Source: an uncultured Flavobacteriaceae bacterium (lineage in GTDB: Bacteria > Bacteroidota > Bacteroidia > Flavobacteriales > Flavobacteriaceae). Taken from it: a stretch of DNA of 64,000 nucleotides. The notes under the pieces are model-generated. The model did not search any database. It had not been told where the DNA came from and was given only the letters and a program-made list of their open reading frames with translations. Both the position numbers and the translations under genes were made by a program. The stretch lies in contig CAWIGH010000005.1 in assembly GCA_963835675.1 (NCBI GenBank), positions 271,874 to 335,873 on the forward strand, read 5' to 3'. Of this stretch, positions 1,988 to 26,720 are shown piece by piece; the stretch's first letter is position 1; every line of letters begins with the position of its first letter.

Positions 1988-2842
1988 TTATCTTAATTTC
2001 TTCTGCCATTTATTTCTAAAATATACCGCGATTCCGTTCATAACAAAAGTAATTAATAATAATATGATGATGGCAGCGGCAGCATTTTCTATAAATCCTT
2101 GTTGCGGTCTTGAGATCCAGTTGAATATTTGAATTGGCAATACAGAAAATTCATCCATCGGGTTTTGCGGGGCAAAGGGAACATAGGCCAAGGCACCAAC
2201 AACAATTAATGGTGCCGTTTCGCCTACGGCTCTTGACAAAGCTAAAATTACGCCTGTTAAGATACCTCCAGAAGCGGCTGGCAATATTTGATTCCAAATG
2301 GTTTGCCATTTCGAGGCGCCCAATGCATATGAAGCATCTTTAATAGAACTAGGAACAGCTTTGATTGCCTCTCGAGTAGCCACGATAATAATGGGTAAAA
2401 TCAATAATGATAAGGTTAAACTTCCTGCTAAGACACTTGCGCCTAGACCCATCATCCTAACAAAAACCTCAAGGCCTAACAATCCGTATATAATTGATGG
2501 GACTCCTGCCAAATTGGAAATATTAATCTCCAATAAACCTGCTAATTTATTATGTTGCCCATATTCCTCTAGATATATTCCAGCAGCCACCCCTACCGGG
2601 AAAGCAATGACGGCAGTTAATAATAAGATCCAAATACTGCCCATGAGCGCTGTATAAATACCCGATTTTTCTGCTTTTCTCGATGGTAGATCAGTGAGAA
2701 ATGCCCAGTCGATTCTATTAATACCGTCTATGAGTATATCTCCTATAAAAATAATAAGGAGTACTAATCCAATCAGTGTACAAAATATACCCCAAAATTT
2801 AAAGAGCTTATCTTTCAGCCTGTTTTTTTGAAGATTATTCAT
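1988..2842 (-). CDS. pstA: Phosphate ABC transporter permease
   Basis: [14 protein letters not shown]-like loop [18 protein letters not shown]; operon position. Confidence 0.95.
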
Positions 2843-3713
2843 ATTTTTCCTGATATTTTTTTCTAATTCTATAGCTGATGGTATTCAATAAAAAAGTAAA
2901 TACAAACAGTGTTATACCGGCAGCAAAAATGGTTCTATATTCTATCGAACCATGTTGAACATCACCCAAACTAACCTGTACTATATAGGCAGTTATGGTT
3001 TCTACGGGAACGGTCGGATCAAAAGTGAGTCTGGGTTGTTGTCCTGCAGCAATGGCAACGATCATCGTTTCGCCAATAGCCCTAGAAATTGCTAAAATTA
3101 TAGAAACAATGATACCAGACGAAGCAGCAGGAATAATTACTTTAAATGCTGTTTGTAATTTTGTAGCTCCCATACCAAAAGAAGCCTCCCTCAAAGAATT
3201 CGGAACAGCATACAAAGCGTCTTCACTCAAAGAAGACACAAATGGTATGATCATGATACCCATGACGATACCCGCAGAAAGTGAGTTAAAACCAGATAAT
3301 CCCGGAATGAATTGTTGTAAAAATGGTGTAACCACTACTAAGGCAAAAAATCCATAGACTACTGTAGGTACGGCTGCCAATAATTCCAATAATGGTTTAA
3401 TGGTTTTTCTAAAACTTTTAGGAGCATATTCACTTAAATAAATACTTATCGATAATCCGATAGGTAAAGCGACAGCAATGGCAATAAAAGAGGTCAGAAT
3501 AGTTCCTGAAAGCAAGGCTGAGATACCGTAATGTTTATCCGTAAATAAGGGCGTCCATTGTGTATCTGTAAAAAAATCTAAGATGGAAACCTCACTGAAA
3601 AATCGAAAAGCTTCTATGGCCAATACAAAAATGATTCCTACTGTAACTGCAATAGTAACCAATGCGCTGGAAAGTAACGACTTTTCTATGACAAGCTCTT
3701 TTATTTTTCGCAT
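2835..3713 (-). CDS. pstC: Phosphate ABC transporter permease
   Basis: ELLAAVPTVVYG, LREASFGMGATK, SRAIGETMIV. Confidence 0.95.
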   Translation of the reverse strand: MRKIKELVIEKSLLSSALVTIAVTVGIIFVLAIEAFRFFSEVSILDFFTDTQWTPLFTDKHYGISALLSGTILTSFIAIAVALPIGLSISIYLSEYAPKSFRKTIKPLLELLAAVPTVVYGFFALVVVTPFLQQFIPGLSGFNSLSAGIVMGIMIIPFVSSLSEDALYAVPNSLREASFGMGATKLQTAFKVIIPAASSGIIVSIILAISRAIGETMIVAIAAGQQPRLTFDPTVPVETITAYIVQVSLGDVQHGSIEYRTIFAAGITLFVFTFLLNTISYRIRKKYQEKYE

Positions 3714-3784: not shown

Positions 3785-4734
3785 TTATTTGTTACTTTCA
3801 ACAAAAGCCTTAAAACTTTCTTTTGCTTTTTCATAGTTTTCTGTTGGGAGCGGTATATATCCAACATCCTTAGACAATTCTCCCGCATTATCTATGTAGA
3901 AGTTTACAAACTCCACAACTTCTGGTTGATTTAACCGAAGTGCTATTTACATAAATAAATAATGGTCTTGATAATGGTTTATAGGTACCATTGCTAACGG
4001 TTTCTAAAGTTGGCTTTACAACTTCTTCTCCATTATTTACACCAATTAATCTAAGCTTATCTTTGTTTTCTGCATAGTATGCCAAACCAAAAAATCCTAA
4101 AGAAAATTTATCCCCGGCGATTCCTTGTACCAGTACATGGTCATCTTCACTGGCGGTAAAATCACCTCTACTTGAACCACTTTTTCCTACTACGGCTTCG
4201 GTAAAATAATCGTAAGTACCTGAAGCTACACCAGGTCCGAATAAATGAATTTCTTCATTGGGCCATTCCGGACGAATTTGGTTCCATTTCATGATCTTTC
4301 CCTGAGCTGCTGGTTCCCATATTTTTTTTAATTCTTCAACATGTGAAATTGTCTACCCAATCATTTTCCGGATGCACTAATACAGCTAATCCATCGTAGG
4401 CAACTTCTAATTCTAAATATGTGATATTATTTTCTGCACAGGCCGCTATTTCTTTATCTTTTATAGGTCTTGATGCATTTGAAAGGTTTGTTTCACCTCT
4501 GGAGAATTTTTTAAATCCACCTCCGGTTCCTGAAACACCAATAGTTACCTTAACATTAGGTTGAGCAGATCTAAATTCTTCTGCTACCGCTTCAGTAATG
4601 GGGAAAACGGTACTTGAACCATCAACCTTTATGGTGCCTTCTAAAGCAACACTATCACTTTTAGAAGTTTCTTTTTTTTCTCCACAAGCCACTACGATTA
4701 GTGCCAGTGTAATAATTGTTATTAATTTTTTCAT
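3785..4734 (-). CDS. pstS: Phosphate-binding lipoprotein PstS, broken by two extra bases (~4341, ~3926)
   Basis: Lipobox [35 protein letters not shown]; length 950 = 948+2; correcting two single-base insertions restores a 315-aa ORF ending ...AFVESNK*. Confidence 0.9.
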
Positions 4735-4758
4735 TCTTTACTATTCGTTTTTATGGTG

Positions 4759-4838
4759 CAAATTAACGGCTCTAATGTTACCAGAAGGTTACCAAATAAT
4801 GAAGAAATTGCGAGTAGAAGGTTATGATTGTGTTAACA
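4759..4838 (-). promoter_or_regulatory. pstS promoter with Pho-box-like 11-bp-period repeats
   Basis: GTTACCA 4777, GTTACCA 4788, GTTATGA 4821 and GTTAACA 4832, all in 11-bp register; -7-like TTAATTTG (minus strand) at 4759-4766. Confidence 0.65.
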
Positions 4839-4923
4839 GAATGAACTTGTATAAGATGAGAACCAGTTTAACCGGCTCACGACTACCAATTCAACAATTA
4901 TTAGAGAAGGCGTATGAAGTATA

Positions 4924-15753: not shown

Positions 15754-16548
15754 TCAGCCAAATGCAGCTCTCTTTGCGTGCTGCACGTTTGTAAAGACCT
15801 GATCGAGATAAAATTCATCTTTCAAGATGCCATTTACACGCTCTGCGATGGCATTCTCGTAGCAATGGTTTTCTTCAGTCATACTAATATCTATCTTATT
15901 TCTTTTAAGTATTTGAGTGTATACATTGCTGCAATACTGTATTCCTCTGTCTGAATGATGAATAAGTTGTTTAATATTCTTGGATTGATAAATGGCTTTA
16001 TTAAGCGCTCTAACGCATCCTTTAAGTTCTAAACTATCACTAAGGTCATAACCTACAATCTTTCTAGAATACATGTCTGTAATGAGCTCGAGATAACAAA
16101 ATCCTTTTACGGTTCTTATATAGGTAATATCAGATGCCCAAACTTGGTTAGGCCTTGTAATATCTAAATCTTTAATGATGTTTTTATACTTGTAGAACCT
16201 GTGCAACGAATTGGTTGTTCTGGCACTGTATTTCTTTCTAAGTGTTAGCATTTGATGTTTTCTAAGGACATTAAATAACGTGTCTCTACCGACTTTAAGA
16301 TTGGCTTTGGTAAACTCATCTTCCAATGATATCTTAAGTTTCCGCACGCCTTCTCGAGGAAGGGATCTGCGTCTTTTCATTACAATTTCTATAATTTGTT
16401 GTTCTAATTCTAAACGTTTATCAGCTCTAATTTTGTACTTATAATAAGCATCGCGTTTAAGTCCAAAACAATGGGTTATAGTAGATAAAGAAGCAAATCC
16501 CTTAGATTTCTCTTTGGCTTTGATTAAGGCTTTATGCTTAGCTTTTTT
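15754..16548 (-). CDS. IS3 OrfB DDE transposase, C-terminally truncated
   Basis: WASDITY, HHSDRGIQY, NAIAERVNGILK; ends prematurely ...HAKRAAFG*. Confidence 0.85.
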   Translation of the reverse strand, partial: KKAKHKALIKAKEKSKGFASLSTITHCFGLKRDAYYKYKIRADKRLELEQQIIEIVMKRRRSLPREGVRKLKISLEDEFTKANLKVGRDTLFNVLRKHQMLTLRKKYSARTTNSLHRFYKYKNIIKDLDITRPNQVWASDITYIRTVKGFCYLELITDMYSRKIVGYDLSDSLELKGCVRALNKAIYQSKNIKQLIHHSDRGIQYCSNVYTQILKRNKIDISMTEENHCYENAIAERVNGILKDEFYLDQVFTNVQHAKRAAFG

Positions 16549-16934
16549 TTTAGTTCGGCAACAGATTTGTAGCCTAGGTCTTCTGCCGCTACTTCCAGGT
16601 ATGAATCTAATACCAAGGCATCCAGATCTTTTTTTAAGAGTAGCTTTTTAAGCTGTTCAATCTCTTTTTGCAGTGCCTTAATCCGAGTTATTTCGTCTTT
16701 TGTTTCCACTTTTAATCTGGTGTTCATTAGGTCTTTACGATTGTACTTTCTAATCCATTCATTAATGGTCGTGAGAGCAATACCATAAAGTTTTCCTAAC
16801 TGATTCTTGTTTAGTTTTCCTGTACTAATTTCGTCTAAAATTTTTAATTTGAAAGGTTCGCTGTACCGTCTAATTACTTTGTCATTTTTATACATAATGT
16901 TTAAAATTATGTAGCCTTTATTCAGGACGGGTCA
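15763..16934 (-). mobile_element. IS3-family insertion sequence, 3'-truncated (only one inverted repeat)
   Basis: End reads TGACCCGTCCTGAATAAAGGCTACA on the minus strand from 16934; orfA/orfB in -1 relation; no matching IR near 15750. Confidence 0.9.
16524..16895 (-). CDS. IS3 OrfA (HTH)
   Basis: RRYSEPFKLKIL...TTINEWIRKY; A9G run at 16542-16551 contains the A-AAA-AAG -1 frameshift motif. Confidence 0.85.
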   Translation of the reverse strand: MYKNDKVIRRYSEPFKLKILDEISTGKLNKNQLGKLYGIALTTINEWIRKYNRKDLMNTRLKVETKDEITRIKALQKEIEQLKKLLLKKDLDALVLDSYLEVAAEDLGYKSVAELKKKLSIKP

Positions 16935-23162: not shown

Positions 23163-23314
23163 GCACAACGTTTCTGTATATGATTTGTGCGGCTTAAAAT
23201 CCGTCCCGCCACGCCTTGGCGTGGGAGGATTTTCAGCTATTCAAATCAGATATTAAATATAATAGTTTTTAAATGATGTAGGAATGCAAGCATGAATTAT
23301 ATACGTTGTTGGCA
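23163..23314 (-). repeat. attC-like site S14 (152 bp) with a REP-like insert at 23205-23225
   Basis: GCACAAC-6nt-GTATATGATTTGTGC ... GCATGAATTATATAC-3nt-GTTGGCA. Confidence 0.87.
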
Positions 23315-24256: not shown

Positions 24257-24275
24257 AATTGGATTTTTTAATTGC

Positions 24276-24409
24276 TGCCAACGGTTTTGTATAAGAATAA
24301 TTGCGTGTGCAAGCCACTAACTTACTAAAAATGGAACGAACCAGAGGAAAATCCGTAGGATTTTCCGAGAAGGTAAGAAGCAAGCAATTATTTTTACACG
24401 GTGTTGGCA
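24276..24409 (-). repeat. attC-like site S15 (134 bp)
   Basis: TGCCAAC-6nt-GTATAAGAATAATTGC ... GCAATTATTTTTACAC-3nt-GTTGGCA. Confidence 0.87.
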
Positions 24410-24417
24410 CAAGTATT

Positions 24418-25242
24418 TTATAATTCATATTTCCATTTTTGAGTTTCATTGTCGAAAGCTATACTAAATCCTCTCATAGAATTGACAGGTATGTTCGTTT
24501 CTTTGTGCCTTTTTATTTCCCATTTTGAAATTTTACTAACCAGTTCTATTGCATCTTTTTGAAATTCGGTCAGAGGTTTTTTAATTGAAACCTCAAATTT
24601 GATTGGAAGATTAAAATTAGAATCTATTTCGGTTTTATATCCTCTATTGGTTGTAACAGAGATTAATTTTCCATTTTTGTCAATAAGCAGTTTTAAAAAA
24701 GAATGAGGATTTTCATAGTTCTTTTTTTTACCAAGTTTTAAAATTGAATCTACATTTGTAATTGGGTTTGGATAATTAAAGTCGTTCTCTAAAAAATAAA
24801 TATAATTTTCAATTTTAAAAGAATTCCCATTGTCAAATACTCTTTGTTCTTTTTCTGATATATTTCTTTTATCAGTTGGTTTAGAATTTGAGCAAAAATA
24901 TCCAAAAGTCAGTTTGTTGTTTCTGCGTTTAGCATAGACAAGCCAATTTTCGCCAATTTCCACATTCCAATCACATGAAGTCCAAATTCCAGTATAATCT
25001 CCTTCAGAATTTAAAGTAAATTCCAATGTTGTAGGTTCGTTGCTTTTTTTATAATGTTTTAAAATATCAAAGGTAATTTTGTAAGTAAGAGAATCAGATG
25101 AATATACTTTAGAAACAGCTTTTCCTTCAAAGACATATTCAGCTGAAAAAAATTCAAGTGCAGGTTTTGGAACATCACAAACACAAGAAAATGCTCTTGT
25201 GAAAACTAGTGTTAAAATTAATGTAGCAATGATTTTTTTCAT
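24418..25242 (-). CDS. Secreted hypothetical protein with a Cys-containing NTR/TIMP-like N-terminus (C1, first cassette)
   Basis: Signal peptide then SCVCDVP...AEYVFEGKA...WTSCDW...YFCSNS. Confidence 0.72.
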   Translation of the reverse strand: MKKIIATLILTLVFTRAFSCVCDVPKPALEFFSAEYVFEGKAVSKVYSSDSLTYKITFDILKHYKKSNEPTTLEFTLNSEGDYTGIWTSCDWNVEIGENWLVYAKRRNNKLTFGYFCSNSKPTDKRNISEKEQRVFDNGNSFKIENYIYFLENDFNYPNPITNVDSILKLGKKKNYENPHSFLKLLIDKNGKLISVTTNRGYKTEIDSNFNLPIKFEVSIKKPLTEFQKDAIELVSKISKWEIKRHKETNIPVNSMRGFSIAFDNETQKWKYEL

Positions 25243-25247
25243 ATTTG

Positions 25248-25323
25248 TGCCAACTCGTTATATGTGGAACTAATATACACATTATCCCTATTTTTTTCCG
25301 GATAAGAGGAAATTTTGTTATCC
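25248..25323 (-). other. attI-like head site of the array
   Basis: Lone core (minus strand CATATAACGA-GTTGGCA) with no partner inverted arm upstream; TTATCC/GGATAA hexamers at 25282, 25300 and 25318. Confidence 0.6.
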
Positions 25324-25472
25324 TTTTTGGGAATTAAATATTGCTATTACTAAAACGGTTACTCATGAACCATTTTACCTTTGGTTTGGCTCAACAACCG
25401 GCCTAAGCGAAAGCCTATTTCGGACAAGTAGGTGAGTGGTGTGTTTATATTTATAAATCAATGCCTTAAAAC

Positions 25473-25498
25473 AAAAAGGAGCGCTCAAAAAGCGCTCC
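25473..25498 (-). terminator. Intrinsic terminator of the porin gene
   Basis: GGAGCGCT-5nt-AGCGCTCC followed by a T5 tract on the minus strand. Confidence 0.8.
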
Positions 25499-25526
25499 CC
25501 AATTAAAAGTTATTAAACAGATCTGT

Positions 25527-26720
25527 TTAAAAATGAATATCAAATTGTAACCTGTACATTACTTCATTAGTGCCACCATCTATCGATAAATAACTAATAT
25601 CAGACTGCACTTTTAATTTATGCCCAACGATATATTTAGAGACACCCAAGGTGTATTGATTTTCTGCATCATTACCGGTAACGATCTTGTCTAATTCAAT
25701 ATTTGTATATCGACCGGAAATCTCCCAGTCATTATTAAATAAATAACCGGTTTGTAGATTTAATCCCCGACCAACTTGTACCTCATCTCCTGTAAGCGAT
25801 CCATTAGAATTTTTTGCATAAGGATCTTCAGCATCTCTGTCTGCATATTCTGCCATAAATGAAAAGCCTTTATACTTAAACATCGCATCAATAAACAAAG
25901 TATTAATATTGGTTTGGTAAAATCCTACATCATTCGTCATATAAGAGCCTTGGTTACTTCTGTTTTTAACGGCATTATTATTGTGGTCGTAAGTAACAGC
26001 AAGCGAATTTGGGTTTTTCTTCACGCTTTAAATCACTTCCAGAATAATCGCCATTGCTTGTAAATCTCCCAATGGAAGAAATTCTAAACGGCCGGTATAT
26101 TGATGCCCTCCTATGTTTCCACTGGTAATGTTTCTTCCCTCACCTTGAGCAATAGAGAATATTTCTCTCATAACAAAATGTATCAGATAAGTTAGAAATG
26201 TGTCTTAGTTGTATCCCCATATCACGATCAATATTAAAACGACTGTTTAATAGAGAACGATCTACTTGCTGAAGATTTCCCGATGAGATTACCCGTTCAA
26301 TGTTGCCTGGTAATTTTGTTTGCCCAAACCATAGTTCGAAATTTTCGGAAAAATTATATTTTATAACAGCATCTAAAATATATCTTGGGGCATTGCTGGT
26401 AAATTCGGAAGCTCCGGAGATATCCCGGTTTGAAAGTCCTAACTCCATTTTATATTTAAGTTTCGGAGAAAAAGCATATCCATCAAATTTTAAACGTGCT
26501 CTTCTTACTAAAAAGTTAGACTCACCGATTTACCGGCCCTTCTTCAAAATTTGCCAACGGCTAAAAATTGCATCCGAGCAGCAATTTTCATGGTATAGGT
26601 ACTATCCTTTCCCACCAGGTTAAAAAGGCCTTTGCCAAATTGAGGCGCATTTGTTTCCTGTGCGCTCATAGTGATGAACGTAAATAAAAATAAGGTGATA
26701 AGTGTTGCTTTAAATTTCAT
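25527..26720 (-). CDS. Phosphate-selective porin (OprO/OprP-like), fragmented by several indels
   Basis: MKFKATLITLFLFTFITMSAQ signal; FLVRRARLKFDG, LLNSRFNIDRDMG, C-terminal RLQFDIHF; shares Pho-box-like repeats with pstS. Confidence 0.8.

Follow-up and report, generated by a model that had tools for sequence, protein, structure and literature searches.

An orphan array head in a Flavobacteriaceae genome, very probably the attI-like insertion site of an integron-like system with a small Xer-type recombinase

The window, that is, the whole stretch of 64,000 nucleotides analysed here from the genome of an uncultured Flavobacteriaceae bacterium, carries on its minus strand a long cassette array that begins behind a phosphate-type porin gene. 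The features at and around the start of the array (window coordinates) are given below. The Bacteroidetes -7 promoter consensus is TAnnTTTG.

4880-25254, minus strand: cassette array headed by the site described here, about 16-20 units, with an intergenic R''-L''...L'-R' pattern
24268-24416, minus strand: first internal attC-like site, R'' TGCCAAC ... R' GTTGGCA, a long hairpin
24418-25242, minus strand: first cassette gene, 274 aa, lipoprotein-like leader, no Pfam family
25252-25254, minus strand: GTT of the putative crossover core (GTTGGCA = 25254-25248), the last element common to all heads
25257-25263, minus strand: right arm ATATAAC, followed by the 2-nt spacer GA (25256-25255) and then the core
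25270-25277: CTAATATA, reading TATATTAG on the minus strand, similar to the Bacteroidetes -7 box
25282-25287: TTATCC (GGATAA on the minus strand), first hexamer, start of the non-coding part of the head
25288-25350, minus strand: decayed 3' end of a recombinase gene, 20 codons and the stop TAG (25290-25288), with an in-frame TAA
25300-25305: GGATAA (TTATCC on the minus strand), middle hexamer, the Leu-Ser codons of a conserved tail ...FLLSGK
25318-25323: TTATCC (GGATAA on the minus strand), third hexamer, a strain-private change of GGAGAA to GGATAA
25351-25475: spacer between porin terminator and head, unique in the genome, no noteworthy Rfam match
25476-25500, minus strand: intrinsic terminator of the upstream porin gene, an 11-pair stem (6 G-C pairs) followed by a T tail

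On the minus strand the order is CACATATAACGA-GTTGGCA-CAAAT-ATG, with GTT at 25254-25252 and the ATG of the first cassette at 25242, 9 nt past GTT and 5 nt past GTTGGCA. The three hexamers lie 18 bp apart, start to start. A first-pass annotation, made from the sequence alone, had reported the hexamers, the -7-like box and the core, and direct reading finds all of their coordinates correct; the porin terminator that it placed upstream of the head is also present. It had further described the core of the first unit as lacking the upstream inverted arm seen at internal sites. No inverted partner arm is found in the head at 25243-25330, and as single-stranded DNA this segment folds at the level of shuffled sequence (z of -0.3 and 0.0). 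Since the first internal site folds with z about -4, the lone core is real. A hairpin reading of the head (ATGTG/CACAT) was dropped, its fold signal being absent and its covariation inconsistent. The triple hexamer is unique in the 3.3-Mb genome, and the pair TTATCC-N12-GGATAA has three occurrences, of which two lie in the two heads of this genome. An Rfam scan of the head, the spacer and the repeats of a related species mentioned below gave no meaningful match. The spacer evolves fast, and contains CATGAGTAACC-GTT, similar to the 3' end of a cassette site. The porin gene itself (25527-26720, minus strand) is split by at least three frameshifts into four or more reading-frame pieces, and is a pseudogene unless the breaks come from a run of assembly indel errors.

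Most intergenic sites of the array, between 4880 and 25254, follow the pattern R''(..CCAAC)-spacer-L''(TATAA) ... L'(CATAYA)-AAC-N-R'(GTTRNNN). Folding energies are -23.9 kcal/mol (plus strand) and -20.9 kcal/mol (minus strand) for the site at 24268-24416, and -19.7 versus -18.7 for that at 23170-23290, z being about -4 for each; at both sites the plus (bottom) strand is slightly more stable. Five of eight cassette proteins scanned have a Pfam match, none of them to an immunity family, and three belong to no family; the cargo includes carbonic anhydrase, DUF2490, SnoaL and HTH proteins. An IS3-type transposase (HTH_Tnp_1 and rve, in two ORFs) lies within the array at 15754-16895 on the minus strand. 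Arrays were mapped with a crude 3'-end motif, which is enriched only in the window array and after a recombinase gene on another contig, C1. A generic genome-wide detector of complementary AAC/GTT 11-mers was abandoned for poor specificity and sensitivity.

The genome (3.3 Mb in 7 contigs, 97% complete) was searched with the DNA of window positions 25200-25560. One other copy was found, C1:376562-376669, 92% identical to window positions 25243-25350 (minus strand); no third head was found, and the genome thus has two, one in the window and one on C1. The C1 copy sits directly at the 3' end of the recombinase gene, in cassette orientation. The recombinase ORF (C1:375665-376621, 319 aa) ends in ...SAIINSQKGEQNFLLSGKK-TAG, with the stop codon falling within the head motif. 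When the two copies are read side by side, window positions 25288-25350 correspond to the last 20 codons and the stop of that gene in decayed form, and the change of GGAGAA to GGATAA creates both the third hexamer and the in-frame TAA of the remnant. The earlier statement that the window holds no recombinase remnant is therefore wrong. Apart from this 20-codon stub no tyrosine recombinase match is found in the window, and the suggestion that the recombinase had been lost from the locus holds for all but those codons, a complete absence being contradicted by the stub. Identity between the two copies extends through ...CACATATAACGAGTTG, directly after which they diverge. Upstream of the putative crossover they differ at six positions, all within the first 39 nt, while the next 61 nt, up to GTTG, are identical. 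The C1 head leads into an array of attC-type sites of its own, whose first cassette has no Pfam family. This comparison indicates that the window copy arose from a recombinase-array junction, the gene having been lost except for 20 decayed codons.

The first-pass annotation had proposed searching the genome for tyrosine recombinases, and this search yields one array-type gene, the one on C1 with the matching head. It is the best match to the integron-integrase model, and no protein of the whole genome scores above the cut-off of that model. Against TIGR02249 it reaches 193 bits (cut-off 265) in two pieces, model positions 180-238 being unmatched; IntI4 (2a3v) also aligns in two pieces, with residues 196-244 opposite only 4 query residues. 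With Pfam, only the catalytic domain and a SAM-like N-terminal domain are recognised. Of the NCBIfam models, those for archaeal XerA (204 bits), IntI (193 bits), XerC and XerD match best, all under their cut-offs, and the best-matching solved structures are XerA/XerC-like. The catalytic Arg, His-x-x-Arg and Tyr motifs are visible. By these matches the enzyme is classified as Xer-like and not as an integron integrase. Given the missing IntI insertion and a gene that runs in the direction of its cassettes, the system is no classical integron. Xer-like genes also occur at two other places in the genome (C4:322679 and C1:314308), so that this recombinase is an extra paralogue. Together with the proteins P0001-P0004 it forms a clade of 319-321 aa proteins, whereas most family members have about 393 aa; the clade is without an N-terminal extension of about 75-90 residues, of no Pfam family, that most relatives carry. 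This makes the activity of the clade uncertain. First cassettes are nevertheless turned over within the same clade, despite the missing extension.

Among 401 sampled Flavobacteriaceae genomes, 102 contain this recombinase (83 of 302 genera), always as one copy except for one genome with two. The same head is present at all 33 recombinase-adjacent loci examined. The motif, which the first-pass annotation had suggested seeking beside recombinase genes elsewhere, is thus found at the C1 gene and at 33 other Flavobacteriaceae loci. In the compact loci (n=27) the protein tail ...EQ(K/N)FLLS(G/R)(K/N)-stop is followed within 29-45 nt by ...TATATT(T/A)(G/A)-N7-9-ATATAAC-NA-GTTG. The compact form, about 36 nt past the stop, reads TATATT(T/A)(G/A)-N-CATATAAC-NA-G|TT, with the cassettes joined at GTT; six of the 33 loci have an additional 70-230 nt between the stop and the head core. 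In several relatives ATATAAC pairs with an upstream GTTATAT across 8 nt. A search of genome contigs for related loci gave two loci only, one of them in Ulvibacter litoralis (60% identity).

The hexamers do not all belong to this head. Those at 25300 and 25282 do, and that at 25318 does not: it reads GGAGAA or GGCGAA on C1, in two close relatives (L102, L103) and in a sister strain of the window's genome. The positions and spacing of the triple hexamer, as first described, are right; its reading as a single conserved unit fails, the element at 25318 being private and the middle one being ATATCC in the sister strain. The motif (T/A)TATC(C/T) is found in 32 of the 33 recombinase-adjacent heads (in the exception, L057, it is interrupted), and it is kept also in orphan heads and in non-coding second copies of the head (L020, L021, L022, L061, L070). 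About half of the heads have GATA(A/T) 12-16 nt past TTATC, including the non-coding copies of L020, L021 and L022, and L070 has AATAA. An inverted repeat further upstream, GGAAC-AAAA-GTTCC, decays in orphan heads, and its conservation is therefore probably due to coding. The second copies just mentioned lie 70-190 nt past the stop and read TTATCC...GATAA...ATATAAC-NA-GTT, as if the head had been duplicated in tandem behind the gene. An earlier alignment, in which the LSENY tails of L020-L022 were taken as homologous to the TTATCC of the window, was replaced when the second, non-coding copy was found.

Comparison of close relatives points to the place where cassettes are inserted. Two metagenome contigs carry the same recombinase locus as C1 at 90-93% nucleotide identity (L102, L103), and both share the thrS-infC-rpmI-rplT neighbourhood. 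The four heads (C1, the two relatives and the window) share one sequence as far as GTTG, beyond which come unrelated sequences, TAACCAATTT, AACGTGAATA, GGCTTAATAA and GCACAAATAT. Four identical heads followed by four unrelated first cassettes suggest that the GTTG boundary is the insertion point, and the pattern is as would be expected of an attI-type site with exchange at G|TT. The G, T and T are invariant in the 33 loci, these bases being partly fixed by the alignment anchor; conservation drops after GTTG, except for an AT at +10/+11 that is common to all cassette starts. The proposal that an integration platform lies at the array head is borne out, in that homology between the copies ends exactly at GTTG.

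A sister strain (97% identical), represented by a 25-kb metagenome contig (L104/L106), has the same porin, terminator, spacer, orphan head and cassette order. It differs from the window at 27 of 309 positions at the porin 3' end, 20 of 125 in the spacer, 5 of 40 in the gene remnant and 3 of 23 in the stretch from TTATCC to the stop. There are no differences in the 36-nt core (0/36) and none in the next 950 nt, the whole first cassette being identical. At the third hexamer, which is absent, the sister strain has GGAGAAC. Over 12.5 kb of the array the two are about 99.9% identical, with the exception of two blocks that diverge by 9-11%. The first of these stops at the head core. The second (24300-23305, 90 differences) covers cassette 2 and has its bounds not at the G|TT points, where they would be expected, but inside two sites, in the L' arm of the first and in the R''-L'' spacer of the second. 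Apart from cassette 2, the IS3-type transposase region is the most variable between the two strains. The divergence boundary at the head core fits recombination there, be it site-specific or homologous, and this weakens any argument from selection only for the identity of the core. Instead of selection, a recent duplication or homologous exchange could account for the identity of the core with C1 and with the sister strain. In the L' arm of the first site all three differences (24291, 24296, 24300) are T to C on the gene strand; as these turn A-T pairs into G-T wobbles, the plus-strand hairpin is kept.

Orphan heads are common in Flavobacteriaceae. A strict pattern, TTATCC-N30-42-ATATAAC-N-AGTT, run over the 401 genomes, gave 127 heads in 77 of them, against about 16 for the reversed control; more deeply truncated heads would escape, since the pattern required TTATCC. 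The 127 heads comprise 39 next to a recombinase gene and 88 orphans, of which 48 are in 26 genomes with a recombinase elsewhere and 40 in 27 genomes without a recombinase at E <= 1e-75. A genome may have up to seven heads. We read 13 heads in three complete genomes, 3 of them recombinase-adjacent and 10 orphan, and co-oriented short ORFs lie downstream of all 10 orphans. The genes upstream of six orphans were scanned: in three cases these are secA, uvrB and alanine racemase-mscL, and the other three lie behind weak or unassigned ORFs, with no recombinase domain. Orphans are often near-identical to the resident recombinase-adjacent head, and heads differ strongly between genera. Upstream, the orphans break off at variable distances from GTT, between 57 and more than 150 nt, and one orphan has a near-complete second copy of the gene. 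Such variable break points and the near-complete copy fit the loss of redundant recombinase genes, not one site-specific event. A site-specific left junction (GTT 6-7 nt before the start of homology), suggested by three orphans, failed when seven more genome pairs were compared.

In G023, the closest species of the set, three orphan heads are present, and the orthologous porin locus carries no array. Each of these orphan heads is preceded by a repeat of about 350 bp (CCATTCCACACACA...GCAAAATAACATAACGC; L042, rc 1690-1990 and 2750-3090; L043, rc 3020-3230 and 4550-4900), which neither occurs in the genome of the window nor matches any Rfam family. Another complete genome, G205 (L089-L095), has seven heads of two sequence types and one recombinase; four of its heads come from a different recombinase lineage, the gene of which is no longer there.

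The head may also contain a promoter. At -23 to -20 from the crossover G, 25 of the 33 heads match the -7 consensus at five or more of six positions, compared with 6.7% of background positions, and four heads have a perfect TATATTTG (L060, L063, L067 and L073, the last read by eye). No -33 element was found upstream of the -7-like box. A sigma-70 scan of the head gave no promoter, the sigma-70 consensus being one that does not fit Bacteroidetes. Chances seem even that the TATATT box serves as the -7 element of a promoter directed outward, with transcription starting just before the crossover. Alternatively or additionally, it may be a left binding arm, as the arrangement GTTATAT-N8-ATATAAC in several relatives suggests. 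Because the porin terminator about 220 bp upstream blocks read-through, all transcripts of the array would have to come from such a promoter in the head.

Taken together, the sequence comparisons make it very probable that 25243-25350 is an orphan head, an attI-equivalent double-stranded insertion site of an integron-like system with a small Xer-type recombinase. In the complete platform, as on C1 and at the 33 other loci, the recombinase gene is co-oriented with the cassettes, its last codons (...EQ(K/N)FLLSGK, stop) running into the site; incoming cassettes would be joined at the GTT of the head, and the conserved -7-like box would start transcription just upstream of the crossover. The single recombinase on C1 would act on the window head in trans. 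In the manner of IntI at attI, the C1 enzyme probably binds the duplex head of about 60 bp and joins a folded cassette site to it at G|TT, at both heads. We put forward only tentatively, at slightly less than an even chance, the broader reading in which one Xer-type recombinase serves several dispersed arrays through attI-like orphan heads of about 60 bp that always include the recombinase's last codons. This reading also holds that the heads are kept by selection, outnumber recombinase genes by about two to one, lie after housekeeping genes and supply a promoter for the first cassettes.

A less favourable view is that the window head is a dead relic: a second complete platform whose recombinase gene was deleted, leaving a CALIN-like array in which no recombination takes place now and a head conserved only through the recency of the loss. 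The decayed remnant with its in-frame stop would be expected of such a relic, as would the IS3-type transposase in the array and the 40 orphans in genomes without a recombinase at the above threshold; random deletion also predicts break points that are specific to each genome, as they are. It does not explain well, however, that mismatches accumulate only outside the last 61 nt, that the head persists in the sister strain with its core unchanged and its flank differing by 9-16%, or that orphans are near-identical to the resident head in several genera despite the strong differences between genera. In addition, the same genome has an intact recombinase with a matching head. We consider a dead relic unlikely, though a serious contender.

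The two remaining explanations carry far less weight. If the hexamers, on alternate faces and 18 bp apart, were a regulator site for the array or for the porin-pst neighbourhood, their exact spacing and the uniqueness of the triple in the genome would be accounted for, and the TTATC-N14-GATAA spacing is kept in L020, L021 and L022 even where it is non-coding. But the third hexamer is a private substitution, the middle one is altered in the sister strain, TTATCC encodes the conserved Leu-Ser of the recombinase tail, and about half of the heads are without GATAA, which makes an operator very unlikely. We give almost no credence to the idea that the lone core is the L'-R' half of an ordinary attC from which R''-L'' was deleted, with no platform role. 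It rests on the similarity of CACATATAAC-GA-GTTGGCA to internal sites at their 3' ends, for example CATACACAAACAC-GTTGGCA; but the spacer between ATAAC and GTT is 2 nt in the head and 4-7 nt in internal sites, the 108-bp stretch is homologous to the recombinase-array junction and to no internal site, and the same half-site stands behind the recombinase stop codon in 33 loci. The first-pass annotation had named recovery of the inverted arm in related strains as the outcome that would speak for a deleted attC, and the arm is seen in no relative.

The orphan head thus interpreted as an attI-equivalent site resembles the classical integron (intI, attI, Pc) in many respects. In both, the array begins at a fixed double-stranded site where the crossover falls at GTT, the cassettes have folded AAC...GTT sites as their boundaries, the first cassettes behind an identical head are unrelated to one another, and a promoter-like box within the site points into the array. 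Unlike in the classical integron, the recombinase is without the IntI-specific insertion, its gene is co-oriented with the cassettes and overlaps the site with its 3' end, and a genome may have several heads without a recombinase. Integron integrases are defined by this extra domain, which is held essential for recombining folded attC sites. Integrons in which the integrase is transcribed in the direction of the cassettes ('inverted' integrons) occur, as in Treponema denticola, but their integrases carry the IntI insertion. In the sense of IntegronFinder, imperfect inverted-repeat cassette ends that fold into hairpins are present, as is an attI-like site with variable cassettes past G|TT, while the recombinase falls outside the definition. 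Comparative traces that may reflect the movement of cassettes are four first cassettes behind one head and mosaic blocks of identity bounded at sites. With IntegronFinder 2.0, only In0 elements and one complete integron (Salinibacter) were reported in Bacteroidetes.

The window array is also like a CALIN, in that it has two or more attC-type sites and no neighbouring integrase, and lies at a distance from the recombinase gene. Mobilisation in trans is stated to be possible for CALINs. A CALIN needs no attI by definition, whereas the window array has a complete head, identical to the resident one, and a recombinase stub; the CALIN label describes the state of an array, not a mechanism. The head could serve as a marker for arrays that integrase-based tools presumably label CALIN or miss.

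The interest of the finding lies in the base-level definition of the site and in the frequency of orphan heads. A recombinase without the IntI domain heads attC-type arrays in about a quarter of the sampled Flavobacteriaceae genomes, and comparisons locate its insertion point with single-base precision. The sharply bounded head of about 60 bp, which survives without the gene, offers a minimal substrate for biochemistry and lets one ask whether one enzyme services many platforms. Should the broader reading, tentative as it is, prove true, gene capture in this phylum would be a matter of one enzyme and many platforms, not of one integron per integrase.

In text searches of the literature the system was not found described for Flavobacteriaceae. 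Judged by description, the published system nearest to it is rAID-1 of gut Bacteroidales. The rAID-1 papers (Ross et al., bioRxiv 10.1101/471110; 10.1101/2025.05.03.651265) describe a XerD-like recombinase, co-oriented genes and integron-like repeats; motifs lie behind the stop codon of the recombinase and between genes, and the authors find them reminiscent of integrons. There rAID-1 is defined by more than 44% identity to B. fragilis BF9343_RS08045 and by immunity-gene cargo, and close homologues of its recombinase are stated to be restricted to Bacteroidales; term searches of the two papers found no crossover point and no orphan heads. The host in the present case is a marine Flavobacteriaceae bacterium and the cargo is mixed, unlike the immunity genes of Bacteroidales. 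On the other hand, short co-oriented genes lie downstream in both systems, and conserved motifs follow right after the recombinase stop and recur between genes. A criterion for rAID-1, two or more low-G+C genes downstream in the same orientation with conserved motifs between them, applies both to the C1 platform and to the window array. The Flavobacteriaceae system also offers a way into the mechanism of the immunity arrays of rAID-1 in gut Bacteroidales.
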